Below, one piece after another: positions 1,482 through 30,094 of a DNA stretch of 32,000 nucleotides. Both the position numbers and the translations under genes were made by a program. The notes beneath the pieces are model-generated. The model searched no databases. It was not told where the DNA came from and was given only the letters and a program-made list of their open reading frames with translations. This stretch comes from Patescibacteria group bacterium (GTDB taxonomy: Bacteria; Patescibacteriota; Patescibacteriia; UBA2591; UBA6264). How positions within the stretch are numbered: position 1 is the stretch's first letter; every line of letters starts with the position of its first letter. The stretch spans positions 30,001-62,000 of the forward strand of contig JAQTOB010000004.1 in NCBI GenBank assembly GCA_028713575.1, given 5' to 3'.

Positions 1482-2915
1482 ATGAATTTAAATCAATTAA
1501 CAATTTTATCGGTTCATCAGGGTTTAAAAAAGAAAGAATTTTCCAGTCAAGAATTGACTAAAGATTGCTTAACAAAAATAAAAAAAAGCAATAAAGAAAT
1601 TAATGCTTTTATTACTGTTTTAGAAAAACAAGCTTTAAAACAAGCCGAGGAAATTGATAAAAAAATTAAAATTCAAGGCGTGGATAATTTTTTAACTGGT
1701 ATTCCCCTGGGAATTAAAGACAATATTTTAATTCAAGATGTTGTTTGTACTGCTGGTTCAAAAATTTTAGAAAATTATCAGGCTATCTATGATGCCACGG
1801 TAATTAAAAAATTAAAAAAAGCTGGAGCGATTTTTTTAGGCAAAACCAATCTTGACGAATTCGCCATGGGTAGCTCTACTGAATCGTCTGCCTTTGGTCC
1901 GACCAAAAATCCTATTAATTTATCTTATATTCCCGGTGGTTCTTCTGGCGGTTCTGCCGCCGCAGTCGCGGCTAATATGTGTTTGGCTGCCCTTGGTTCT
2001 GATACTGGCGGTTCTGTCCGTCAACCGGCGGGATTTTGTGGCGTCGTTGGACTAAAACCAACCTATGGGCGGGTTTCTCGCTATGGCTTGATTGCCATGG
2101 CTTCTTCTCTTGATCAAATCGGACCATTGACCAAAAACATTGAAGACGCGGAAATTTTATTTAAAACAATTAAGGGCAAAGATGATTTTGATGCCACTAG
2201 CGTTGAGGTAAAAGATGAAGACCCAGGGAAAATGAAAACAAAAAAAATAAAAATTGGCCTACCTAAAGAATATTTTATCCAAGGGCTTGACTCGCAGATA
2301 AAGGAAGTCATCAATAACTTAATTAAAAAATGGCAGAAGCAAGACGCTGAATTTATAGAGGTTAGTTTGCCCCACGCATCGCTCGCTTTGGCTTGCTATT
2401 ATATTATTATGCCCGCGGAAGTTTCTTCTAATTTGGCTCGTTATGACGGCATTAAATACGGATTTTCCACCAATGGGGAAAATAAAAATTTATTAGATGT
2501 TTATTTAGATTCTCGAACCACGGGTTTTGGCGAAGAAGTCAAACGCCGAATTATGCTCGGCGCCTATACTTTGTCTGCCGGCTATTATCAGGATTATTAT
2601 TTACAGGCGCAGAAAGTAAGAACTTTAATCAAAAAAGATTTTGAAAAACTTTTTCAAGAAAAAGATATAGATTGTTTATTAACCCCAATTAGCCCAACTT
2701 TGCCCTGGAAATTGGGAGAAAAAATAAACAACCCTTTAAGTATGTATTTGGCGGATGTTTATACCGTTTCCGCCAATCTGGCTGGTTTGCCGGCGCTTTC
2801 ATTGCCTATTGGTAAAATTGATGATTGGCCGGTCAATGGGCAATTAATCGGTAATTATTTTCAGGAAAGCAAAATTCTGCATCTCGGAAAAATGATTGAA
2901 AAATTAGGACTTTAA
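1482..2915 (+). CDS. gatA: Glu-tRNA(Gln)/Asp-tRNA(Asn) amidotransferase subunit A
   Basis: 477 aa with the amidase signature GGSSGGSAAAVAANMCLAALGSDTGGSVRQPA and GatA-typical flanks (LGIKDNI, GKTNLDEFAMGSS). No gatB follows in this window. Confidence 0.95.
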   Translation: MNLNQLTILSVHQGLKKKEFSSQELTKDCLTKIKKSNKEINAFITVLEKQALKQAEEIDKKIKIQGVDNFLTGIPLGIKDNILIQDVVCTAGSKILENYQAIYDATVIKKLKKAGAIFLGKTNLDEFAMGSSTESSAFGPTKNPINLSYIPGGSSGGSAAAVAANMCLAALGSDTGGSVRQPAGFCGVVGLKPTYGRVSRYGLIAMASSLDQIGPLTKNIEDAEILFKTIKGKDDFDATSVEVKDEDPGKMKTKKIKIGLPKEYFIQGLDSQIKEVINNLIKKWQKQDAEFIEVSLPHASLALACYYIIMPAEVSSNLARYDGIKYGFSTNGENKNLLDVYLDSRTTGFGEEVKRRIMLGAYTLSAGYYQDYYLQAQKVRTLIKKDFEKLFQEKDIDCLLTPISPTLPWKLGEKINNPLSMYLADVYTVSANLAGLPALSLPIGKIDDWPVNGQLIGNYFQESKILHLGKMIEKLGL

Positions 2916-2967
2916 GGTTTTTGGAGACCAGGTCTCCAAAAACCTTTTGGAGACCAGGTCTCCAAAA
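2916..2967. repeat. Tandem pair of perfect palindromes starting directly after the gatA stop; possible bidirectional terminator
   Basis: GGTTTTTGGAGACC-a-GGTCTCCAAAAACC spans 2916-2944 (14-bp arms). TTTTGGAGACC-a-GGTCTCCAAAA spans 2945-2967 (11-bp arms). The core GGAGACCAGGTCTCC repeats with a 26-bp period. Confidence 0.9.
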
Positions 2968-2969
2968 AA

Positions 2970-3029
2970 GGTATTCAAAAAATGGCTGCTAAAATTCTGT
3001 ATCTCGGAAAAATGCTGGAAAAAATATAG
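2970..3029 (+). pseudogene. Displaced, diverged copy of the last ~20 codons of gatA
   Basis: 2991-3024 (aaaattctgtatctcggaaaaatgctggaaaaaa) matches gatA 2871-2904 (aaaattctgcatctcggaaaaatgattgaaaaat) at 30 of 34 positions. The offset is exactly 120 bp and in the same frame. It encodes GIQKMAAKILYLGKMLEKI* versus gatA GNYFQESKILHLGKMIEKLGL*. Confidence 0.6.
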
Positions 3030-3030
3030 A

Positions 3031-3062
3031 AAAACGTACGGAACAAAGCTTTGTCGTTTTTT
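3031..3062. terminator. Hairpin plus T-run after the fossil gatA end (candidate original gatA terminator)
   Basis: AAAAACG (3031-3037) pairs with CGTTTTT (3055-3061) around the inner palindrome ACAAAGCTTTGT. The hairpin is followed by tttta. T-rich sequence flanks it on both strands. Confidence 0.35.
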
Positions 3063-3457: not shown

Positions 3458-4480
3458 ATGGAAGAAGTAAAAAATTTAGAAATGGCGAAAAAGCCTTGCC
3501 GTTGTAAATTCGGCCTTTGGCAAATAATTGCCGCGATTTTACTTATTATTACTGTTGTTTCGGTTTTAACCGGAGGGTTTGGTTTAAAATTGTTCGGAGC
3601 TTCTCCTGATAAATTAGCCAAACAAACAGTAGAATTTATTAATCAATATTTATTACAGGCAGGCTCTACTGCTTCTTTGATTACCTCTGAATGTAATCAT
3701 AAAGTTTCTCTTTGTAAATTTAAAATTGATGTTTCTGGCGCCGAATATGATTCTTATGTGAGCAGTGACGGTCAAATACTTTTCCCCGACGCGATTGAAA
3801 TAGAGAAATTTAAAGAACAACAAATTTCGGCAAATCAGGAACAGCAGGTTTCTTTGGAGGATTTGCCCAGAGCTGAAAAACCCGAAGTAGACCTCTTTAT
3901 TATGTCCTATTGTCCTTATGGTTTGCAGGCGCAAAAGGCCATGTTGCCGGCAATGGATTTATTAAAGGATAAAGCGGATATTAAAATTCGTTTTGTTGAC
4001 TACATTATGCACGACAAACAGGAAATAGATGAAAATTTGAGGCAGTATTGTATTCAAAAGGAAGAACAGGAAAAATATACAGCTTATCTTAATTGTTTTG
4101 TAATTGCCGGTGAATTTGAAAAATGTTTAACCGAAGCGAAAATTAATAAAACAAAAATGAATAATTGTATTTCTCAAACAGATAAAGAATACAAAATTAG
4201 CGCCAATTATGAAGATAAGTCAACCTGGCTGAATGGAAATTATCCCGCTTTTAATGTGGAGGCGGATTTGAATGACCAATATAATGTTCAAGGTTCTCCC
4301 ACTTTAGTTATTAATGGACAAGAAATTAATGTTAATCGCACCCCTAATGATTACAAAGAAGCGATTTGTTTTGGCTTTGAATCAATGCCCGAAGAGTGCG
4401 CTCAAGAGCTTTCTGCCCAATCTTCAACGCCCAGTTTTGGTTTAGAGGCGGGAGAATCAACTGACGCTGAATGCCAATAA
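3458..4480 (+). CDS. Membrane-anchored thioredoxin-fold (DsbA/glutaredoxin-like) protein with a CPYG motif
   Basis: 340 aa with an N-terminal TM segment (WQIIAAILLIITVVSVLTGGF). The thioredoxin-like core includes DLFIMSYCPYGLQAQKAMLPAMDLL and a C-terminal GSPTLVINGQEI. The second Cys of the CxxC motif is replaced by Gly. Confidence 0.6.
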   Translation: MEEVKNLEMAKKPCRCKFGLWQIIAAILLIITVVSVLTGGFGLKLFGASPDKLAKQTVEFINQYLLQAGSTASLITSECNHKVSLCKFKIDVSGAEYDSYVSSDGQILFPDAIEIEKFKEQQISANQEQQVSLEDLPRAEKPEVDLFIMSYCPYGLQAQKAMLPAMDLLKDKADIKIRFVDYIMHDKQEIDENLRQYCIQKEEQEKYTAYLNCFVIAGEFEKCLTEAKINKTKMNNCISQTDKEYKISANYEDKSTWLNGNYPAFNVEADLNDQYNVQGSPTLVINGQEINVNRTPNDYKEAICFGFESMPEECAQELSAQSSTPSFGLEAGESTDAECQ

Positions 4481-4492
4481 ATAAATTTTAAA

Positions 4493-4720
4493 TTTTGGGG
4501 GCTGGGGTCTGACCCCCTAAACAGACCCCCCAAAACCATTATTAGATTTGCAAAGTAGAACGATTTTTCTAATTTGGTGCGATTTTGTTGAATTTATTAT
4601 ATCATACCACTACAACTTCTTGCAGGTCAGACCTGCAAGAAGTCTCTGCAAGAAGTACTGCAAGAAGTAGGGCAAAAATTTTGATTTGGTGTAATTTTGA
4701 CGGATTTTCATTTTTTTAAT
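4493..4720. repeat. Composite repeat after the thioredoxin-fold gene: two different palindromes, each followed by the shared AT-rich module
   Basis: GGGGTC-t-GACCCC at 4504-4516 is nested in TTTTGGGGG (4493-4501) / CCCCCCAAAA (4526-4535). A module tagaacgatttttctaatttggtgcgattttgttgaattt follows. CTTCTTGCAGGTC-a-GACCTGCAAGAAG spans 4616-4642 (13-bp arms), with the right arm ctgcaagaagt repeated three times (4633, 4646, 4658). A second module ttgatttggtgtaattttgacggatttt follows. Confidence 0.85.
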
Positions 4721-6356: not shown

Positions 6357-6600
6357 CGGGGTTGTAAAAATAAGATTTTATAGTATAATGATAACATAAA
6401 ATATAAGAACATTAAAACGCCAGAACACTAGAATATAGTGACAGAAATACAATAACTAATTATTCTAATTATTCCAATGAATACCCAATTTCCAACCCCC
6501 AATGTCTAAAAATTTTTGGTCATTCAGTCATTGGTTATTGGGATTTTGTTAGGTCAATTAGAAATTAGGTTAATTAGGTTAATTTTATCTTATTTGTTCC

Positions 6601-6651
6601 AATGTTCCTATGTTATAATGTTCTAATGTTCTAATATTAAAATGATTTATT
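6601..6651 (+). repeat. Array of 8-bp units (AATGTTCT type) running into the pilM start codon
   Basis: The register is aatgttcc|tatgttat|aatgttct|aatgttct|aatattaa|aatgattt|att-ATG. An inverted partner array lies at about 6397-6430, on the comFC side of the same intergenic region. Confidence 0.7.
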
Positions 6652-7695
6652 ATGGGGCTTTTTGGTATAAGAAAAAATAAAAGTTTTTTGGGCATTGATA
6701 TTGGGTCAACCAGCATCAAGTTGGTTGAATTAGGCAAAGAAAACGGTTTGCCGGTTTTATTGACTTATGGTTATGCCGAGAGGGCGATGAGCGATATTGT
6801 TAACGGTGATGCCAAAGAAATTTTGAGTAAAGTGGCAGTTTTGCTTAAAAAGTTATATACGCAGGCCGGAGCGGACAGCTATCAGGCAGTCACGGCTTTG
6901 CCGAATTTTTCAGTTTTCAATTCCGTGATTACCCTGCCGATGATGAGCAAAAAAGAACTTGATTCTGCGATTCATTGGGAGGCAAAAAAATTTATTCCTA
7001 TGCCCATTGAAGAAGTAATTTTAGATTGGCGAATTATTGATGTTATTGATGTGGATAAAAAAAGAAAAAATTATCGCATTCTTTTAACCGCCGCGGCAAA
7101 AAATTTGGTTAAAAGATATGTGGAAATTTTTAAACAAGCCGACCTGCAACTTCTTTTTTTGGAAACAGAAGCTTTTGCCTTAGTTCGTTCCTTGCTTGGT
7201 AAATCGCAAGCCACTACCATGATTATTGACACCAGTGCCGTCACCACGGATATTATTATTATTGAAAAGGGCGTGCCCGCGCTTAATCGTAGCATTGATG
7301 TTGGCGGGATTACTATTTCTCAGGCCATTGCCAATGGATTGAGCATTGATTTTAAAAGAGCGGAGCAATTTAAAAGAGACATTGGGATGAGCGGTCCTTC
7401 AAAAATTTCCCGGGTGATTGAAGAAATTTTAAAACCAGTAGTTGATGAGATGAGTTATTCTTTAAGGCTTTATCAGGATCAATCGGGTAAAAAAGTGGAA
7501 CAAATTATTTTGTCTGGCGGTTCGGCTTATTTGCCGGATTTATCCGATTATTTTTCAAAAATTATGAATATACGCGTTATTGTCGGCAATCCTTGGGCCC
7601 GTATTTCTTTTAACCAAGAATTAAAGCCGGCCTTGGATGAAGTGGCTCCGCGTTTTGCCGTTGCCATTGGTTTGGCTTTAAGGGAAATTATTTAA
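6652..7695 (+). CDS. pilM: Type IV pilus assembly protein PilM (actin-like ATPase fold)
   Basis: 347 aa with the N-terminal GIDIGSTSIKLVEL motif, internal motifs IIDTSAVTTDIII and DVGG, a C-terminal ILSGGSAYLPDL, and a position at the head of the pil block. Confidence 0.85.
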   Translation: MGLFGIRKNKSFLGIDIGSTSIKLVELGKENGLPVLLTYGYAERAMSDIVNGDAKEILSKVAVLLKKLYTQAGADSYQAVTALPNFSVFNSVITLPMMSKKELDSAIHWEAKKFIPMPIEEVILDWRIIDVIDVDKKRKNYRILLTAAAKNLVKRYVEIFKQADLQLLFLETEAFALVRSLLGKSQATTMIIDTSAVTTDIIIIEKGVPALNRSIDVGGITISQAIANGLSIDFKRAEQFKRDIGMSGPSKISRVIEEILKPVVDEMSYSLRLYQDQSGKKVEQIILSGGSAYLPDLSDYFSKIMNIRVIVGNPWARISFNQELKPALDEVAPRFAVAIGLALREII

Positions 7696-11246: not shown

Positions 11247-11402
11247 AGATTTTTCCCAAAAAGAGTTAGAATTATTACTGAAAGAATTGATAGAAATGAC
11301 CAAAGTGATTGCTTTAAATATTTTAACCTTAAAAGGTAAAAATAATTTTATATTTTAAATTGTCATTTTAATTTTTGAGATTTGCATTTTACGCTTAATT
11401 TT

Positions 11403-12476
11403 ATGTCTACTCAAAATGAAATTATTTTAAATCGTATTTGTCAAAATAGCGCCGAAAAAAGGGCCTCAGAAGTTTATTTATTGCCAGCTCAGCCACCCTT
11501 TGTCAGAATTGACGGAAAAATGGGAATTTTGGCCGGCGAAAGCATTATCACCGCTTCTTTTATCAACGATTTTTTTAAAAATATTCTTGATGAAAGAGAG
11601 CAGTCCGTTTTAGAAAAAGAAAAGCAGATTGAAGTGATAAAAAATATCGGGAAAATGGGGGAGTGCCAAATAGATATTTATTATCAAAAAAATTCTTTGG
11701 CTTGCCGTATAAAATTATTGGCCCAAGAAGTTATTGACTTGGAAAAACTTGGCTTGCCTAAAATGGTTACTCGTTTTGCGGACTTTTTTAAAGGCATTAT
11801 TTTTATTGCCGGACCGCGCGATTCAGGTCGTTCCACTTTGGCAAATTCTATTTTAAATCATATTAATAAAAATCAAGCTAAATTTATCGCCACCGTAGAA
11901 AAACCCATAAAATCAATTTTAATTGGAAGAAGAAGCGTAGTTGAACAAAGAGAAGTGGGGAAAGATGTTCTTTCTTTTTTGTCCGGTCTCCGTTATATTC
12001 GGCAAAGAAATGCTGATGTCGTTTTTGTTTCGCAAATAGATGACGCAGCGACAATGGATGAAATTTTTGCTATTGTTGAGGCCGGAAGCTTGGTTTTTGC
12101 CATTATGGATACGGAATCAGCCATTAAAACAATTAAAAGAATTTTGCATTTTTATCCTACTGACAAAGAAGAAACCGCCCGTTATTTTTTAAGTGAAAAT
12201 TTAGCCGGCATTGTTGTTTCCCGTCTGGTTCCTAAAATTGGTGGTGGCCGAATTAGGGCTTTGGAGGTTTTGGCCGGTACGCCGGCGGTTCGTTCAATTA
12301 TCGCCAGTGGACGCTTTCATCAATTAGCCGGTGTTATCCAGGCGACAGAAGACCAAACCTCTGTTTCTTTAGACCAATCCTTGGTTGACTTAGTCACTTC
12401 AGGGAAAGTGGTTTCTGAAGAAGCCATAAAACATTGCAACAACGAAGAAATTTTTAGGAATTTGTTGAGAAAATAA
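11403..12476 (+). CDS. PilT-family protein with degenerate ATPase motifs (likely non-catalytic paralog)
   Basis: PilT-like N-terminus (ASEVYLLPAQPPFVRIDGKM) and C-terminus (GTPAVRSIIASGRFHQL, LDQSLVDLV). The ATG at 11403 is preferred over the TTG at 11382. The motif changes are listed in the findings. Confidence 0.8.
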   Translation: MSTQNEIILNRICQNSAEKRASEVYLLPAQPPFVRIDGKMGILAGESIITASFINDFFKNILDEREQSVLEKEKQIEVIKNIGKMGECQIDIYYQKNSLACRIKLLAQEVIDLEKLGLPKMVTRFADFFKGIIFIAGPRDSGRSTLANSILNHINKNQAKFIATVEKPIKSILIGRRSVVEQREVGKDVLSFLSGLRYIRQRNADVVFVSQIDDAATMDEIFAIVEAGSLVFAIMDTESAIKTIKRILHFYPTDKEETARYFLSENLAGIVVSRLVPKIGGGRIRALEVLAGTPAVRSIIASGRFHQLAGVIQATEDQTSVSLDQSLVDLVTSGKVVSEEAIKHCNNEEIFRNLLRK

Positions 12477-12480
12477 AGAG

Positions 12481-13195
12481 ATAATTAGATAATTGGGGTC
12501 GGAGATAATTGGGGTCTGACCCCATGAGCATCCCTTCTGAGATAATTGGGGTCTGACCCCATGAGTATCCCTTCTAAAACATACATGATAATTGGGGTCT
12601 GATAATTGGGGTCTGACCCCATGAGCATCCCTTCTAAAACATACATCAATAAAGGATTATAGAACGAAAATTTCAATTTGGCGCGATTTTGATTGATTTC
12701 CAATAATTTTTTATCAAAACAACGATTTTTGACACTAATTTTGGGGTCTACACTAATTTTGGGGTCTGACCCCATGAGCATCCCCTCTAAAACATACATC
12801 AATAAAGGATTATAGAACGAAAATTTCAATTTGGTGTGATTTTGATTGATTTCCAATCACTAATTTTGGGGTCTGACCCCATGAGCATCCCTTCTAAAAC
12901 ATACATCAATAAAGGATTATAGAACGAAAATTTCAATTTGGTGTGATTTTGATTGATTTCCAATAATTTTTTATTAAAACAACGATTTTAATTGAAAATT
13001 GATAATTATTTAATTTACATTTAATCACTAATTTTGGGGTCTGACCCCATGAGTATCCCTTCTAAAACATACATCAATAAAGGATTATAGAACGAAAATT
13101 TCAATTTGGTGCGATTTTGATTGATTTCCAATAATTTTTTAACAAAACAACGATTTTAATTGAAAATTGATAATTATTTAATTTACATTTTGCAT
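12481..13195. repeat. Array of composite repeat units (GGGGTCTGACCCC hairpin, body, shared AT-rich module, tail) filling the pilT-pilC gap
   Basis: Long units start at 12601, 12751, 12858 and 13026 (107 to about 170 bp, near-identical). Head-only or truncated copies start at 12488, 12504, 12541, 12587 and 12733. Confidence 0.95.
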
Positions 13196-13230
13196 TTTGA
13201 TTTTTCAGTTTTGAATTTAGCGAAGCGCTT

Positions 13231-14442
13231 ATGTTATTTGAATATCAAGCGAAAAATTTAAAAGGAGAAACCATCACCGGAACAATTGAATCCATTAATC
13301 AGAACGCCGCCCTTGAGATGTTGGCGCGCCGGCAAATGATTATTATCTCCCTGAAAGAAACAAGCGCTTTGCCCATTTGGCGCCGGCCGATTAATCTGTC
13401 TTTTTTAGAAAGAGTAACCGGCAAAGATATGGTTTTTCTTTCCCGCCAATTATCCGTAATGGTTATGGCGGGCTTGCCTTTGGTTGAATCTTTGGAAATT
13501 TTGGCGCGCCAAACAAGCAAACCGGCCTTAAAAAAGATTGTGGAAAGCGTTGCGGAAAATGTTCGTGGCGGTTCAAGATTTTCCAGCGCTTTAGCAAAGT
13601 ATCCCAAAGTCTTCAACAATTTTTATATTAATATGGTGCGCGCCGGAGAAACCGCGGGCAAACTTGACGAAGTCTTAGATTATTTGGCCAATGAACAGGA
13701 AAAAAATTATGATTTAATGAGTAAAATTAGGGGGGCTATGATTTATCCGATTTTTGTTATTTCTGCGGTTATTGGCGTGATGATTTTGATGATGGTTTTT
13801 GTTGTCCCTCAATTAACTGACATTTTAAAGGAATCGGGCGTATCATTGCCCTTGCCAACCAAAATTCTTATTGCCACTAGCGATTTTTTAGAAAATTATA
13901 CTTTATTAATCGTTTTGTTCCTTGTGGTTTTTGTTGTCGCTTTCAGGTTTTTTTTAAAAAGTAAAGCGGGTCAGATGATTTGGGACAAAACGCTTTTAAA
14001 AATGCCGATTTTTGGTGTTCTTTTTAAACAAGTTTATTTAGTTCGTTTTACTCGCAGTCTTTCTACTTTGATTATTGGCGGTATTCCTTTAACCGCGGGA
14101 TTAAAAATTGTTTCCGAAGTGGTAAGTAATTATGTTTTTAAAGAAATAATCCTTGACGCGATTATTGACGTGGAAGAGGGACGTTCGGTCAGCAATGCTT
14201 TTCTTAATTCTTCAGCCGTGCCTAAAATGCTTCCCCATTTAATGGCGATTGGAGAAGAAACCGGCAAGCTTGACGAAGTTTTGGGGAAAATTGCTGATTT
14301 TTATTCTCGGGAAGTGGAAAACATTTTAAGCAAATTAGTCACTTTGCTTGAACCGATTATTCTTATTTTTTTAGGAGTAGTTGTTGGCGGCATGGTTGCT
14401 TCTATTATTTTGCCAATGTATAAACTTGCCACCGCCTTTTAA
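13231..14442 (+). CDS. pilC: Type IV pilus platform protein PilC (GspF family)
   Basis: 403 aa with two GspF repeats (FSRQLSVMVMAGLPLVESLEIL and FTRSLSTLIIGGIPLTAGLKIV), three TM regions, and the C-terminal ILPMYKL motif. Confidence 0.95.
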   Translation: MLFEYQAKNLKGETITGTIESINQNAALEMLARRQMIIISLKETSALPIWRRPINLSFLERVTGKDMVFLSRQLSVMVMAGLPLVESLEILARQTSKPALKKIVESVAENVRGGSRFSSALAKYPKVFNNFYINMVRAGETAGKLDEVLDYLANEQEKNYDLMSKIRGAMIYPIFVISAVIGVMILMMVFVVPQLTDILKESGVSLPLPTKILIATSDFLENYTLLIVLFLVVFVVAFRFFLKSKAGQMIWDKTLLKMPIFGVLFKQVYLVRFTRSLSTLIIGGIPLTAGLKIVSEVVSNYVFKEIILDAIIDVEEGRSVSNAFLNSSAVPKMLPHLMAIGEETGKLDEVLGKIADFYSREVENILSKLVTLLEPIILIFLGVVVGGMVASIILPMYKLATAF

Positions 14443-18503: not shown

Positions 18504-19049
18504 ATGCCGCCCAAATTATTGCTTCATGTTTGTTGCGCCAATTGCGGAATAGTTCCCATTGAATTACTAAGAGACCGGTTTGACCTGACTTTATTTTGGT
18601 ATAATCCGAATATTTATCCCCGAACAGAATATCAAAAACGCTTGGCAGATGTTAAAAAATTAGTTAAAATATATAAAAAGGATTTGATTGTTGAAAACAA
18701 TGATATTAAAAAGTGGTTTGAAATTACCAAAGAGCTGGAAAACGAGCCAGAAGGGGGTAAAAGGTGCGAAAAATGTTTTCAAATGCGATTAAGCCGAACC
18801 GCGCGGTTAGCCAAAGAAAAAAGTTTTGATTTTTTTGCCACTACTTTAAGTGTCGGACCGCAGAAAAGGGCGAAAATAATTAATAAATTGGGAGAAAAAT
18901 TGGCGAAAGAATGCGATTTGAAATTTTACCCGGCGGATTTTAAAAAACAAGATGGATTTAAAAAAAGCGTTGAACTGAGCAAAAAATACGGGTTTTACCG
19001 CCAGCACTATTGCGGTTGCGTCTTTAGCATTAGAACGTCAAAACATTAA
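18504..19049 (+). CDS. queH: Epoxyqueuosine reductase QueH (DUF208)
   Basis: LLLHVCCANCG, WYNPNIYP, KRCEKCFQMRL and YRQHYCGCVFS match the QueH cysteine motifs. Confidence 0.85.
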   Translation: MPPKLLLHVCCANCGIVPIELLRDRFDLTLFWYNPNIYPRTEYQKRLADVKKLVKIYKKDLIVENNDIKKWFEITKELENEPEGGKRCEKCFQMRLSRTARLAKEKSFDFFATTLSVGPQKRAKIINKLGEKLAKECDLKFYPADFKKQDGFKKSVELSKKYGFYRQHYCGCVFSIRTSKH

Positions 19050-19052
19050 AAC

Positions 19053-19409
19053 ATGAAAACAAGTAGTTTTAAAGAAAATTTAAAAAAGAAAATGGATGAA
19101 TATGTTCATTTTGTTTATAAAATTACTCTTAATTTTCCTAAAGCGGAAATATATGGAACTGTTTCTCAATTAAGAAGGGCGTCTTTGTCGGTGGTTTTAA
19201 ATTATATAGAAGGATTTGCCAGAAGAAAGAGACTTGTTCAATTGAATTTTTTAGAAATTTCTTACGGGTCGTTAAAAGAATCAAAATATCTTTTACATTT
19301 TGCTTTGATTGAAAATTATTTGGACACAAAAGACTATAAAATTGCTTTAAAAATGGCAGAAGAAATCGGAGCTATGCTTTGGACAGAAATATCTAATTTA
19401 GATAAATAA
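19053..19409 (+). CDS. Four-helix-bundle protein (23S rRNA intervening-sequence protein family)
   Basis: 118 aa. The motif SQLRRASLSVVLNYIEGFARR and the later SLKESKYLLHFA are typical of this family. Confidence 0.7.
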   Translation: MKTSSFKENLKKKMDEYVHFVYKITLNFPKAEIYGTVSQLRRASLSVVLNYIEGFARRKRLVQLNFLEISYGSLKESKYLLHFALIENYLDTKDYKIALKMAEEIGAMLWTEISNLDK

Positions 19410-19450
19410 TTAATTGTTTTTTAGCCAAAGGCTGATCCGTCTCCGACGGA

Positions 19451-19515
19451 AATGTTCTAATGTTCTAGTGTTTTAATGTTTTAATGTTTTTATGTTTTTA
19501 TGTTTTTATGTTTTT
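19451..19515 (+). repeat. Third 8-bp-unit array (8 units), ending at the ATG of the next ORF
   Basis: The register is aatgttct|aatgttct|agtgtttt|aatgtttt|aatgtttt|tatgtttt|tatgtttt|tatgtttt|t-ATG. Confidence 0.8.
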
Positions 19516-19860
19516 ATGAATCCTAATAAATGGGAAAATTTAATATTTATGGCTGAGGAAAAATTTGGTTTAGACAAGAAATACATGGAAGATTTTGAGG
19601 TTTCCGAACTTTCTACGGGCGAGAAAATTATGGGCCAAAAAGAAATTGTGGAATTTAAGAGTCCTTTGGGTCGGATAAAGTTAGAAAAAACTTCCCGGCC
19701 AAAAGTCATTGATAAAAAAGTTTTACACACCAAGAGAATTGGCGGCAGAACCGCCATTGATTTCGTTTATTCGCCGGACGAAAGAGTTGAAGAGCTTAAA
19801 ATTTATAAAGAAAATAAAGAAGGGGAATGGGAAGAGTTAACGGCATTGAAGGAATTTTAA
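19516..19860 (+). CDS. Hypothetical protein
   Basis: The ORF track starts at 19492, inside the 8-mer array. The in-frame ATG at 19516 (MNPNKWENLIF...) is the first one outside the array. No family was recognised. Confidence 0.45.
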   Translation: MNPNKWENLIFMAEEKFGLDKKYMEDFEVSELSTGEKIMGQKEIVEFKSPLGRIKLEKTSRPKVIDKKVLHTKRIGGRTAIDFVYSPDERVEELKIYKENKEGEWEELTALKEF

Positions 19861-27243: not shown

Positions 27244-27264
27244 AATTAAGCCGAAATTCGGTTT

Positions 27265-27840
27265 AAATAAAGAAAAGTCCTCCTATTTTTGAGGGGGTCT
27301 TTTCTTTGTTTTGAGACTCGGTTTCCCGTTGGAAACCGAGTCTCTTCACTTCTTGGTTGTTTTGAGACTCGGTTTCCCGTTGGAAACCGAGTCTCTTCAC
27401 TTCTTGGCTTCCTGTTTAAAGTTCGGTTTCCCGCTTTGCTTCGTAGCGAGCTTTGCTCTGCTACTGGGGCTGGAAGCCGAACTTCTTTATTTTATAAAAA
27501 GCCACTTGGTCTTTAAAGTCCTCCTATTTTTGAGGGGGTCTTTTCTTTGTTTTGAGACTCGGTTTCCCGTTGGAAACCGAGTCTCTTCACTTCTTGGCTT
27601 TGATACTTTGGCGCAATCCCTGATTATGCCGGCTATGGCCGATTTAGCGCAATAAAGCTTCTATTATATATACACTTTGTTTTGAGACTCGGTTTCCCGT
27701 TGGAAACCGAGTCTCTTCACTTCTTGGCTTCCTGTTTAAAGTTCGGTTTCCCGCTTTGCTTCGTAGCGAGCTTTGCTCTGCTACTGGGGCTGGAAGCCGA
27801 ACTTCTTTATTTTATAAAAAGCCACTTGGTCTTTAAAGCC
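27265..27840. repeat. Composite repeat block after the giant gene
   Basis: The ~50-bp unit gttttgagactcggtttcccgttggaaaccgagtctcttcacttcttgg occurs four times (27308, 27358, 27548, 27678). The ~110-bp unit cttcctgtttaaagttcggtttccc...gccacttggtctttaaag occurs twice (27407, 27728). The unit tcctcctatttttgagggggtcttttctttg occurs twice (27278, 27518). Confidence 0.95.
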
Positions 27841-27938
27841 TTTTTTATAGGGAGGTTTGACCCCTTCCTCTTGTTATAAATATTATAAATGTTATAATAA
27901 TTTTCTACTATTTTCGTAAAATTTTCGTATTTCGTAGC

Positions 27939-28469
27939 ATGTTCCACCTCAGAGAGAAAATCCTTTTTCATCAAATTAAAAACGGTGACGAACAGGCCTT
28001 CACCGTCTTTTATAATACCTATAAAGACAGAATTTATCGTTTTATTTATTTTAAAGTTTCTGATCGTGAAAAAGTTTATGATTTGGTTTCCGAAGTTTTT
28101 ATTAAAATATATGATTATATTAAAGAGGGGAATGACATTGATAATTTTCAAGCTTTTTTGTATAAAATCGCTCGTAATTTAGTAATAGATTTTTATCGCA
28201 CTAAAAAAGAGGAAATTTCTTTAACTGATGCGCCGGAAACAGTTTCTCCTATCAATTTAGAAAAAGAAGTGGGAGATAAGGTTGCCGTGGAAAACGTCAA
28301 AAGATACCTTAATAAAATTAAACCAGAATACCGCGAAGCGGTTCATCTTCATTTTTTTGAAAATTTTTCTTTTTCCGAGATTGCGGATATTATCAATCAA
28401 TCCGAAGGCAATGTTAGGATTAGGGTTTATCGCGGCATTAAGCAATTAAAAGAGGTTTTAAGGGGTTGA
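27939..28469 (+). CDS. ECF-type RNA polymerase sigma factor (sigma-70 family)
   Basis: 176 aa with region 2 (YKDRIYRFIYFKVSDREKVYDLVSEVFIKIY, FQAFLYKIARNLVIDFYR) and region 4 (EYREAVHLHFFENFSFSEIADIINQSEGNVRIRVYRGIKQLKE). Confidence 0.9.
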   Translation: MFHLREKILFHQIKNGDEQAFTVFYNTYKDRIYRFIYFKVSDREKVYDLVSEVFIKIYDYIKEGNDIDNFQAFLYKIARNLVIDFYRTKKEEISLTDAPETVSPINLEKEVGDKVAVENVKRYLNKIKPEYREAVHLHFFENFSFSEIADIINQSEGNVRIRVYRGIKQLKEVLRG

Positions 28470-28985
28470 ACCCCTTCTATATGTAGGGGTTCAACCCCCT
28501 CCCCAATAATCGCCATCATAAACTTTTTACACAGGAACTTTTTACACATTTTTACACAGGACATTTTTACACAGGTTGAACCTGTGTAAATTTTCATTTG
28601 CATATTTCACAAAACAAATCCAAAATCCAAAACCCAAATTTTCATAATCACTTGGGAACCGAGTTTCTAAAAAGCAAGAAAGCAAGAGATGGATTCTACG
28701 CTAGAAACTCGGTTTCCCGTTGGAAACCGAGTTTCCTTCTCCCCAATAATCGCCATCATAAACTTTTTACACAGGAACTTTTTACACATTTTTATACAGC
28801 ACATTTTTACACAGCACATTTTTATACATTTTTACACAGGTTGAACCTGTGTAAATTTTCATTTGCATATTTCACAAAACAAATCCAAAATCCAAAACCC
28901 AAATTTTCATAATCACTTGGGAACCGAGTTCCTAAAAAGACATTTTTACACAGGTTGAACCTGTGTAAATTTTCATTTGGCATTT
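28462..28985. repeat. Composite repeat block between the sigma and anti-sigma genes
   Basis: GGGGTT-g-AACCCC at 28462-28474 overlaps the sigma stop codon, and GGGGTT-c-AACCCC lies at 28486-28498. A ~170-200-bp unit (ctccccaataatcgccatcataaac ... cacttgggaaccgag) occurs twice (28498, 28738), plus a partial third copy at 28940. The palindrome TTTACACAGGTT-g-AACCTGTGTAAA occurs three times. Confidence 0.95.
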
Positions 28986-29023
28986 AGTCATTTGATATTG
29001 ATTTGACATTTGACATTGGAAAT

Positions 29024-29053
29024 TTGACATTTCACGTTTTAATGGTGTATAAT
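29024..29053 (+). promoter_or_regulatory. Sigma-70-type promoter candidate for the anti-sigma-like gene
   Basis: Consensus hexamers TTGACA (29024-29029) and TATAAT (29048-29053) with an 18-nt spacer, about 60 nt upstream of the ATG at 29117. Confidence 0.4.
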
Positions 29054-29116
29054 TTTTCCCCTTTCTTCGTCTTATTATTTGTCATTTAGCCATCAAATAG
29101 TTAAATCTCAATTTCA

Positions 29117-30094
29117 ATGAAATTTAAAAATTTGACCCGACAATATAATTCAATAAAATTGGATACTGTTTCTGAAGATAAAATTCGGGAACGGGTTTTT
29201 GATTATTTTCAACAAACTCGTCCTGCTACGCCAACAATGAGTTATCATTTTAGTTTGTTTCTTAAACCGGCTTTAATAAGTTTGCTGGTTTTGTTTTTTA
29301 TTTTTACAACTGGTTTTGGAACAATAGCCGTGGCGAAAAAATCCTTGCCCGGTGATTTTTTATATTCTCTTAAAAGAGTTGTGGAAAAAAGTCAAATGTT
29401 TTTGGCTTTTAGTTCTTCGCAAAAAGTCGTTTTACGCGCGGAAATTTTAAATAATCGTTTTGATGAAGCCAAGGTTTTGGTTAAGAAAATGGAAACAGGA
29501 GACAAGGAGTCAGAATCAGATTTTAATATCTTGGCCGCGAATTTTAATCAGGAATTAAAAATTTTAAAAGAAGAAATTGGAGAACAAATTTTAGTAGAGG
29601 ATGGGCCTTTTCCGGCTGAGGACTTATTAAACACCGAATTATTGGACCAGGGTTCATTGCCGATTCAAGACCAACGCCAGATGTTTACTGTTTTGCCCAA
29701 TGAAGACATTGAAAGACTCTTGACTGAAACCAGAGAATTGCTGGCTGAAAAAAATATGGCTTTGGCCCTAGCTCGGATTGAGCAAGTAGAAAAAATAGTC
29801 AGCGGTGAAGAAAAAGTAGAACCCCAAGAGGCAGAATCTCAGGAAATAGAACTTCAAGAAATTCAGGAAAATGAAAAGAGGATTTTAGAATCAACAGAAG
29901 AAAATTTTCAATTTCCAGCTCTTCAACCGGCGGAACAATCTCCGAATTCCGAATTGCTTGAAACCCAATCCTTGAATTCCCAATTACCCAATTTAGGTTC
30001 AACAGGAAATCTTTCAAAAGAAAAACAAGATGATTTTAAAGTTAAAATAGAAAAGGATTCTTCAGCGCAAACCAGTATGATTCGGGAAGAGTAG
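29117..30094 (+). CDS. DUF5667-type single-pass membrane protein (anti-sigma-factor-like)
   Basis: 325 aa with a short cytoplasmic N-terminus, a TM (ALISLLVLFFIFTTGFGTIAVA), the motif LPGDFLYSLKRVVEKSQMFL typical of DUF5667, and an acidic low-complexity tail. It lies downstream of an ECF sigma gene. Confidence 0.65.
   Translation: MKFKNLTRQYNSIKLDTVSEDKIRERVFDYFQQTRPATPTMSYHFSLFLKPALISLLVLFFIFTTGFGTIAVAKKSLPGDFLYSLKRVVEKSQMFLAFSSSQKVVLRAEILNNRFDEAKVLVKKMETGDKESESDFNILAANFNQELKILKEEIGEQILVEDGPFPAEDLLNTELLDQGSLPIQDQRQMFTVLPNEDIERLLTETRELLAEKNMALALARIEQVEKIVSGEEKVEPQEAESQEIELQEIQENEKRILESTEENFQFPALQPAEQSPNSELLETQSLNSQLPNLGSTGNLSKEKQDDFKVKIEKDSSAQTSMIREE

Follow-up and report, generated by a model that had tools for sequence, protein, structure and literature searches.

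Here we report a follow-up analysis of a tandem repeat array in a 32,000-nucleotide (nt) stretch of DNA, hereafter the window, from a Patescibacteria group bacterium (assembly GCA_028713575.1, contig JAQTOB010000004.1, positions 30,001 to 62,000). The array occupies window positions 12481-13195, between a PilT-like ATPase gene and pilC, and is built from an element of ~97 nt that begins with the palindrome GGGGTCTGACCCC. Our interest is in how the partial copies of this element break at the palindrome, and in how the array may relate to a gene for a Y1-type (HUH) protein that lies nearby. Contigs compared with the window are referred to by L numbers.

The upstream neighbour of the array, a PilT-like T2SSE ATPase gene on the plus strand (11382..12476; Pfam T2SSE E 5.6e-14), has an ATG at 11403 that other gene callers choose as its start, and its 357-amino-acid (aa) product is identical on five further contigs. 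Downstream, also on the plus strand, lies the T2SSF gene pilC (13231..14442; Pfam T2SSF E 4e-60), whose product is identical to a protein that NCBI assigns to Patescibacteria group bacterium. Both genes form part of a type IV pilus cluster that also encodes PilM, PilB and a PilO-like protein.

Organisation of the array

Repeats were called with a repeat search and Tandem Repeats Finder (TRF), and the ends of partial copies were mapped on a canonical 168-nt unit in which the palindrome occupies positions 11-23, with its centre at 17. Four long units start at 12601, 12751, 12858 and 13026, with copy spacings of 153, 107 and 168 nt, and the same tools also report shorter tandem repeats, of 14, 18 and 37 nt, with identities of 97-100%. 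Of the copies of the palindrome GGGGTCTGACCCC in the window, six lie within the array and the seventh at 4504; with up to two mismatches allowed there are 16 matches (both strands and near-matches included) against 0.16 expected. The original prediction, made from the sequence alone, had placed four long units at exactly these starts between a pilT-like gene and pilC, and repeat search, TRF and Pfam all confirm it. It was also exactly right about the positions and sequences of three truncated heads, the 16-nt gataattggggtcgga (12488-12503), the 14-nt gataattggggtct on the plus strand (12587-12600) and the 18-nt cactaattttggggtcta (12733-12750), all of which are simple tandem duplications with a 100% match in TRF. 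Its description of the short copies as head-only suits these three heads but not two further plus-strand copies that extend beyond the palindrome, one with 15 nt of body ending cccttct (12504-12538) and the other with 26 nt of body ending catacat (12541-12586).

All components of the array lie on the plus strand. The proximal block (12481..12600) consists of (a)gataatt repeats and partial copies, with GGGGTCG at 12495-12501. Long unit 1 (12601..12732) comprises a gataatt head, the 97-nt element and a tail cut at ...caacgatttttga (12729-12732), and is followed by the 18-nt tandem duplicate (12733..12750; TRF period 18), which ends at the palindrome centre. Long unit 2 (12751..12857) has a cactaatttt head and the element, and is almost tailless, ending ...ccaat, so that long units 1 and 2 are both truncated in the tail, at ~12732 and 12857 respectively. 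Long unit 3 (12858..13025) carries head, element and a full copy of the native pilC-upstream tail, including TTGAAA-18-TACATT at 12992-13021. Long unit 4 (13026..13195) consists of head and element and runs on into the native pilC upstream DNA, with TTGAAA-18-TACATT at 13160-13189, in agreement with the earlier suggestion that the last tail merges with this region. The tail is not, as had been supposed, an optional part of the repeat unit. Relatives with 79-84% identical PilC have a pilT-pilC spacer of 140-175 nt without any element but share with the window the sequence adjacent to the pilC start codon, which identifies the tail as DNA native to the pilC upstream region, duplicated together with the element.

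A minus-strand open reading frame (ORF) runs across the array, of 123 aa in the window (12485-12856) and 150 aa in L001 (5266-5718). The window ORF matches no Pfam family and has no homologue among 5.8 billion proteins, and the protein is almost certainly spurious.

Break points of the partial copies

On the canonical unit, partial copies end at position 17, the centre of the palindrome, in three cases in the window and in a variant form in L001 and L005. Other ends fall at positions 38, 49 and 107 in the window, at 96 in L001, and at 132 in both. At least three of eight ends therefore lie within 2 nt of the centre of the palindrome in the 168-nt unit (P = 1.3e-3 under a uniform model, for a test that was chosen after seeing the data). 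The independent events at the centre number about three, namely the gataatt type, the cactaatttt type and a 7-nt gggggct copy at 4497-4503.

The same behaviour is seen at other palindromes. Left-arm copies lie upstream of TTTACACAGGTTgAACCTGTGTAAA (28566 and 28831), and approximate left-arm copies, recognised by eye and missed by the exact-match scan, lie upstream of TGGAGGTCgGACCTCCA (5445). Right-arm copies lie downstream of the palindromes at 6958 and 7737 of L019, a sibling assembly ~99% identical to the window, and arm copies also accompany palindromes of L028 and L029. In the exact-match scan the inner boundary of every partial copy was near the palindrome centre, between -5 and +2 nt from it for left-arm copies and between +2.5 and +5 nt for right-arm copies. 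None of ~14 partial copies has its boundary in the far arm, and duplicates of whole palindromes do occur. Adjacent arm copies are far commoner at palindromes of the GGTYNRACC class, to which the array palindrome belongs, than at other palindromes (Fisher P = 4.6e-5; 5.5e-4 when distinct loci are counted). The claim that break points cluster at the hairpin tip is thus borne out, and extends beyond the array to other palindromes of the genome and its relatives, where inner boundaries lie within ~5 nt of the centre. The further claim, that this argues for active, hairpin-directed copying, fares less well: tip-bounded junctions do recur, but their scatter is explained no less well by structure-directed breakage with subsequent processing of the ends than by a site-specific nick, and an SbcCD-like structure-specific nuclease would account for it equally well.

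A cut-and-join reaction at CT, in the style of TnpA-REP (the transposase of repetitive extragenic palindromes, REPs), was considered and rejected. Although CT is found at the end of several left junction sides, it does not precede the right-hand partners at their source, which is at odds with simple strand transfer between two sites.

Could these junctions have arisen passively? If the palindrome were no more than a terminator or a hairpin for RNA stability, such copies might accumulate through slippage at microhomologies and unequal crossing-over in a genome that is AT-rich and poor in repair, with the nearby Y1 gene playing no part. Several observations agree with this explanation. The 14-nt duplication is bracketed by TGA microhomology, the 168-nt and 107-nt units are plain tandem repeats, whole hairpins are duplicated in tandem at 2919-2968 and 27306-27407, and the break points at unit positions 38, 49, 107 and 132 lie away from the hairpin. 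In addition, many of the palindromes follow stop codons with T and A runs alongside, as terminators do. Slippage that stalls at a template hairpin would, however, be expected to leave its boundaries at the base of the hairpin, whereas those seen here are at the tip. The palindrome of the array is also not followed by a T-run, and a terminator scan of the array finds none, so that an intrinsic terminator can be set aside. Together with the properties of the element and of the palindrome class described below, these points lead us to regard purely passive instability as rather unlikely.

Strain variation and assembly

Exact protein identity was used to recover the locus from assemblies in JGI, ENA, NCBI and Logan, whose identity to the window is 99.0-99.9%. 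Among strains more than 99% identical, independent assemblies yield four readable haplotypes with one to four long units. Haplotype 1 is that of the window, and L034 and L035 match it over their extent. Haplotype 2 is represented by L032, the end of an NCBI metagenome-assembled genome (MAG) contig, which equals the window up to 12749 without the 18-nt duplicate at 12733-12750; as this duplicate is present in the window and in L001 and missing from L032, it is strain-variable. Haplotype 3, found in L001 and L033, has four long units in another arrangement. The proximal 16-nt and 37-nt duplications that the window has in common with L032, L034 and L035 are replaced in L001 and L033 by a different duplication of 24 nt, which L005 also carries. 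Haplotype 4 is that of L005, an assembly made at k = 141 that spans pilT to pilC with a single long unit.

The L001 arrangement includes a 31-nt junction, gcgaggattgggatttactggtcttggagtct (L001:5766-5806), that ends in three nested GTCT-terminated fragments, GGTCT, GTCT and GGGGTCT, and has no match elsewhere in the DNA compared. The module before this junction ends in gatcaattttt, as does a copy of the element in L009, a possible sign of sequence exchange with another genomic copy.

Comparison of unit number across related assemblies, which the original prediction had put forward as a check, showed independent assemblies with several units as well as with one; for the window's own sample the number of long units is provisional, as the array interrupts most short-read assemblies. 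It is where five to six of the eight contigs with an identical pilC, and four of the five with an identical pilT, come to an end. Such breaks, and long units of 107-168 nt that exceed the usual k-mers, are what would be expected if the array were a mis-assembled or chimeric path through a mixed-strain repeat graph. Against an artefact of this kind, no assembly k-mer is as short as the duplications of 14-37 nt, which are found in identical form in independent JGI, ENA, NCBI and Logan assemblies, the units bear distinguishing single-nucleotide polymorphisms (SNPs), the k = 141 assembly spans a one-unit haplotype with a SNP combination absent from the other haplotypes, and an independent 98.8-kb contig holds a different four-unit arrangement. 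An assembly artefact is therefore very improbable. Because its short duplications, below any assembly k-mer, recur identically in independent assemblies, the array is real, and it is quickly evolving. On a practical level, users should be aware that such arrays are a main cause of assembly breaks in this genome, which belongs to the candidate phyla radiation (CPR), and that they also give rise to false gene calls, among them the 150-aa ORF predicted over the array of L001.

The dispersed element

The reference copy of the element (12868..12964, plus strand) consists of GGGGTCTGACCCC, 39 nt, TAGAACGA, 8 nt and the 3' module AATTTGGTGYRATTTTGA. Copies at other loci match a profile of the family with nhmmer E values of 1e-25 to 1e-27, and five diverged copies align without gaps (alignment A1) at a mean column identity of 76%. 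The 13-mer GGGGTCTGACCCC is invariant among the copies despite bodies that have diverged to ~60-75% identity, a degree of constraint that counts against passive instability of an ordinary hairpin, and the DNA 5' of the palindrome is unrelated from copy to copy.

A second, diverged copy lies in the window at 4504-4602 (plus strand), 23 nt past the stop of the gene at 3458-4480. It is preceded by the 7-nt left-arm half-copy gggggct (4497-4503, plus strand), which is present in six of eight assemblies and missing from the other two. Beyond it, at 4615..4711 on the same strand, stands the palindrome ACTTCTTGCAGGTCaGACCTGCAAGAAGT, then two or three right-arm copies CTGCAAGAAGTA according to strain, then a module-only copy (4665-4711). 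Two copies lie on L009, a 3-kb metagenome contig from a sample in which this organism is present too, and both are antisense to the neighbouring genes. A further copy, in L024, lies 3 nt past the pilC stop and just before a tRNA-Val gene in a species with 84% identical PilC; the same site is empty in the window. The element is thus non-coding and dispersed in this genome and one related species. Since the upstream DNA is unrelated between copies and the orientation relative to genes varies, it is a gained-and-lost, non-autonomous repeat and not simply a promoter.

A search for a strict pattern of the module gave no match in the genome contig collection, a scan of viral contigs likewise gave nothing, and one metagenome scan, with a pattern that was too strict, returned two contigs only. 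A scan for the palindrome followed at 39 nt by TAGAACG gave one match, in Acidobacteriota, about the number expected by chance on a rough estimate.

Other identities for the element were tried and rejected. As a structured RNA it fails, with fold z-scores of -0.10 and -0.25, RNAalifold support for a 5-bp hairpin alone and a covariation term of -0.2 kcal/mol; no Rfam family covers the array, where matches are at chance level, while two tRNAs reach the gathering threshold in the window. A small ORF or gene 3' end (GGG TCT GAC CCC, a 17-aa GSDP...KGL*) had some appeal, as third codon positions account for most differences between the array unit and the L009 copy and the upstream gene shares its frame with the 4504 copy, but the L024 copy lacks third-position bias and conservation passes the stop. 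Nor is the array a template/variable repeat of a diversity-generating retroelement (DGR), as the differences between units are C/T transitions rather than adenine-specific changes, or a CRISPR-like array, as unique spacers are lacking. Insertion of the element into itself, in nested fashion, fails because the remainder (gaccccatgag...) of the "interrupted" copy is not resumed after the supposed insert.

Past the TAA stop of the gene at 3458-4480, the frame contains no further stop for 25 codons, crossing the palindrome and body until it meets the TAG of TAGAACG (window 4478-4559). This is probably a coincidence; pilT is out of frame with its array.

The GGTYNRACC palindromes

The core GGTYNRACC occurs at 18 sites in the window against 1.24 expected, of which ~11 are independent, and the sites are mostly intergenic. 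Unrelated terminators, as passive instability would have them, should not share such a core. The array palindrome is 13 nt long, or 15 nt with a T/A extension, and the other palindromes of the class measure 17-38 nt. The array's GGGGTCtGACCCC carries the core GGGTC-N-GACCC, which is the centre of the palindromes around the Y1 gene of L029.

Several other repeat-rich places in the window deserve mention. A 1.8-kb repeat-laden region at 27250-29100 surrounds a gene for a sigma factor of the extracytoplasmic function (ECF) type (27939-28469) and contains the 32-nt palindrome GAGACTCGGTTTCCcgttGGAAACCGAGTCTC five times, once with variant arms, as well as TTTACACAGGTTgAACCTGTGTAAA three times with half-copies of its left arm, duplicated blocks (~130 nt and ~250 nt) and short repeats of the ATTTGAC type just before the gene at 29117. 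In the region 2860-3040, after the stop of an amidase (GatA-like) gene, a 26-nt terminator-like palindrome is present as a tandem duplicate (2919-2968). A second, diverged copy of the last ~50 nt of the amidase gene, ...aaaattctgtatctcggaaaaatgctggaaaaaa, follows the duplicated palindrome, so the duplication took the 3' end of the gene along. The NCBI MAG contig breaks near this repeat, between window positions 2719 and 2800. Tandem repeats of (TGTTCTAA) x5 and (AATGTTTT) x8.5 are found at 6595-6644 and 19451-19518, the latter directly after the palindrome TCCGTCtccGACGGA.

A single-copy Y1 gene

The search for HUH or Y1 proteins that accompanies the original prediction was productive. In the sibling assembly a Y1_Tnp gene (L019:7064-7723) encodes a 219-aa protein ~16 kb upstream of the array and ~2 kb before the window start. 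The protein matches Pfam Y1_Tnp with an E value of 2.4e-8, and in its family H83 and H85 (HUH) and Y145-I-H-x-N150 are invariant in 19 homologues. Its AlphaFold2 (AF2) model (pLDDT 83.7) matches the IS608 and ISDra2 TnpA structures, with TnpA-REP (4ER8) giving the best query coverage at a TM score of 0.51. The gene is single-copy, found on one contig per assembly, and it lies between genes for a giant Laminin_G_3 protein and DNA ligase, as do its orthologues at 69-70% identity. Being single-copy with syntenic orthologues, it behaves as a domesticated gene and not as an insertion sequence (IS); it is vertically inherited, with a predicted fold like that of TnpA-REP and IS608 TnpA.

This gene is ringed by GGT...ACC palindromes. 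Its flanks in L019 bear TTTTCTTTTTGGCAGGTGATCACCTGCCAAAAAGAAAA, with right-arm copies after it, and TTGGAAGGTGagCACCTTCCAA, with a right-arm copy after it. In L029 the doublet TTTGACAGGGTCcGACCCTGT / TGACAGGGTCgGACCCTGTCA stands on both sides of the gene, with truncated left-arm copies before the doublet, and in L028 the gene is again flanked on both sides by palindromes with arm copies, as in L019 and L029. L030 has three (C)TGGAGGTCcGACCTCC palindromes, upstream of the gene only. The flanking palindromes of relatives have the core GGGTC-N-GACCC that the array carries. Palindromes of the GGTC-N-GACC type also occur in frame inside the orthologous Y1 ORFs of three other Patescibacteria (L028:3148-3228, L029:3148-3198, L030:3145-3258), where they encode peptides such as RWRSDL and DRVRPCW; that of L028 has half-arm copies and a repeated peptide DRV.PC. 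The position of the in-ORF palindrome is conserved in the family, and RWRSDL or RPCWES motifs occur in many homologues. Palindromes within the gene could reflect self-targeting or autoregulation. The same palindrome class thus surrounds and interrupts the Y1 gene in four species, which counts against passive instability.

Just upstream of the window, in the interval L019:1356-6731, a reverse transcriptase gene (RVT_1, 412 aa) lies divergently beside a 1263-aa Laminin_G_3 protein, a pair that suggests a DGR. A 23S-rRNA-IVP/bAvd-like gene is present at window 19053-19409, and the stretch 19020-19510 differs among otherwise 99.8% identical assemblies and is missing from L002.

The array and pilC

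The position of the array raises the question of whether it has a role in the expression of pilC. It could be a functional regulatory array, in which promoters, UP-like elements or protein-binding sites vary in copy number and so tune or phase-vary pilC, or its hairpins could lend stability to the pilT transcript, a role that intercistronic REPs have in E. coli. The array does lie directly upstream of pilC with a strain-variable copy number, a TTGAnn hexamer similar to a -35 box closes every element and may face outward as one, and the conserved spacing of palindrome, TAGAACGA and 3' module suggests protein contacts. A consensus promoter scan finds TTGAAA-18-TACATT in the native tail (13160-13189), which would predict a pilC start near 13196, and in its duplicate (12992-13021). 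However, promoter-like sites in the region (6) are not above the number in shuffled controls (4.4 +/- 2.1), both L009 copies are antisense to their neighbouring genes, the L024 copy precedes a tRNA gene, and relatives express pilC from the element-free spacer. The promoter proposed earlier for each unit, TTGATT-17-TATTAA, is also weak: its second hexamer reads TATCAA, TATTAA or TAACAA, never has the final T, is absent in unit 2 and is not conserved across units. A regulatory function is accordingly improbable, and the simplest view is that pilC retains its own promoter and the array is tolerated. A further sequence, TAGAAC-16-TGTGA, was noted as a candidate ECF-type promoter, given the ECF sigma gene at 27939-28469.

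Proposed mechanism

In this species the element lies between the pilT-like gene and the native pilC upstream region, and the block has since been reshaped by tandem duplications of 14-168 nt and by deletions, some carrying native pilC upstream DNA. On balance we favour, with moderate confidence, a reading in which the array is a cluster resembling REPs and bacterial interspersed mosaic elements (BIMEs), belongs to a system like that of the REP-associated tyrosine transposases (RAYTs), and owes its short copies to breakage at the hairpin tip and out-of-register repair. Taken by itself, the origin of the short copies by tip breakage followed by such repair is probable. The palindrome would extrude as a hairpin whose single-stranded tip is nicked or broken, the broken 3' end would be trimmed by 0-5 nt, and the trimmed end would re-prime or re-join on a sister copy a few to a few dozen nt out of register. 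The outcome would be a tandem duplication with the hairpin tip as its inner boundary. Once two long units were present, unequal homologous recombination could alter their number. The Y1 protein would be the likeliest agent of the spread and maintenance of the palindromes, and possibly of the nick, and pilC would probably keep its own promoter in the last tail, with the array tolerated but not required.

A number of points weigh against this reading. Within the array, the gataatt-type junctions may descend from a single event and two partial copies (ends 12538 and 12586) break outside the palindrome; at other palindromes, boundaries scatter by several nt. TnpA-REP and IS608 TnpA cut at CT or CA beside the hairpin stem and not at the tip (PMC8266576), and there is no conserved GTAG or CGTC before the palindrome, as there is in REP/RAYT systems. 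As to the Y1 protein, its gene lies outside the window and was read from the sibling assembly, which is ~99% identical to the window, and its sole NCBIfam match, NF047646 (REP-associated tyrosine transposase), scores 33.7 bits against a cutoff of 80. The palindromes that flank it here (GGCAGGTGATCACCTGCC and GGAAGGTGAGCACCTTCC, with GGTGATCACC and GGTGAGCACC variants) differ from the array 13-mer. Finally, the comparison covered ~45 kb of this genome rather than genome-wide abundance, and the pilus loci (14-19 kb) of three related species have few such palindromes.

A bolder version of the REP-like reading is that Patescibacteria possess a distinct class of REPtron, in which a domesticated Y1/HUH protein recognises the GGTC-N-GACC tip and nicks in the loop, as a rolling-circle Rep protein would. 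We consider this speculative and quite unlikely. If it were true, fork collapse or strand transfer at the nick would leave tandem half-palindrome copies, and rapid strain-level remodelling of intergenic regions would follow, including those of the pilus operon and the Y1 protein's own gene.

Comparison with known systems

The pneumococcal BOX, enterobacterial repetitive intergenic consensus (ERIC/IRU) and Neisseria Correia elements are, like the element described here, ~100 nt long, intergenic, strain-variable and modular with variable internal modules, and may carry promoter-like ends. Unlike it, they have terminal inverted repeats or fold as whole-element hairpins, and none of them is known to have half-palindrome copies or a cognate Y1 gene. 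Palindrome fragility, whether through tip cleavage by SbcCD/Mre11-Rad50 or through template switching at quasi-palindromes, likewise places break points at the centre and depends on structure rather than sequence. Its outcomes, however, are mostly deletions, inverted duplications and quasi-palindrome conversion, usually at much longer palindromes; to our knowledge, recurrent direct tandem half-copies at palindromes of 13-38 nt are not among them.

Non-autonomous elements of the IS200/IS605 family (palindrome-associated transposable elements, PATEs), which are mobilised by TnpA proteins such as those of IS608 and ISDra2, resemble the present system in the Y1/HUH fold, in hairpin-defined ends, in the strand specificity of the element, and in having neither terminal inverted repeats nor an obvious target-site duplication. 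They differ in having a hairpin near both ends, whereas here the 5' hairpin alone is supported and the 3' module has no conserved pairing, and in that the Y1 gene here is syntenic and single-copy rather than part of a mobile IS.

The closest parallels are with the REP/RAYT systems of E. coli, Pseudomonas and Stenotrophomonas, whose features we take as defined previously (PMC8266576, PMC3733652). In both cases short, GC-rich intergenic palindromes are over-represented (here within the 32 kb of the window), often just after stop codons, and form tandem clusters with strain-variable copy number. In both, too, a Y1/HUH gene that is single-copy and immobile lies among such palindromes, which in this genome share the GGT...ACC class of the array but not its 13-mer; this arrangement resembles that termed a REPtron (PMC8266576, PMC3733652). 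Palindromes occasionally lie inside genes, and the predicted fold of the Y1 protein is closest in coverage to TnpA-REP 4ER8. The differences are nevertheless considerable. The four bases before the palindrome vary by copy (TTTT, GGCT, ATCT, TCTT and ATCC in alignment A1) without a GTAG, the palindrome measures 13-15 nt as against 20-50 nt for a REP, and it is joined to ~80 nt of conserved, non-palindromic body and 3' module. The units are head-to-tail direct repeats rather than alternating REP/iREP, and, the palindrome being perfect, its own orientation cannot be defined. Tandem half-palindrome copies bounded by the tip, as seen here, are not known from REPs, whose cleavage takes place at CT or CA beside the hairpin. 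The Y1 protein, at 219 aa, falls under the NCBIfam cutoff and in relatives has a palindrome within its own ORF, and the host is a CPR bacterium.

The literature searched contains no report of REP/RAYT systems in Patescibacteria, and no description of tip-bounded half-palindrome tandem copies or of palindromes inside a Y1 ORF. How REPs spread is unresolved even in E. coli (PMC8266576). Unlike the model REPtrons, the system described here has visible footprints, in the form of tip-bounded half-palindrome copies that vary among strains more than 99% identical, as well as palindromes within its own Y1 gene. Should the Y1 protein be the enzyme that cuts, these footprints would map its sites of action and offer a direct route to a test of the mechanism.

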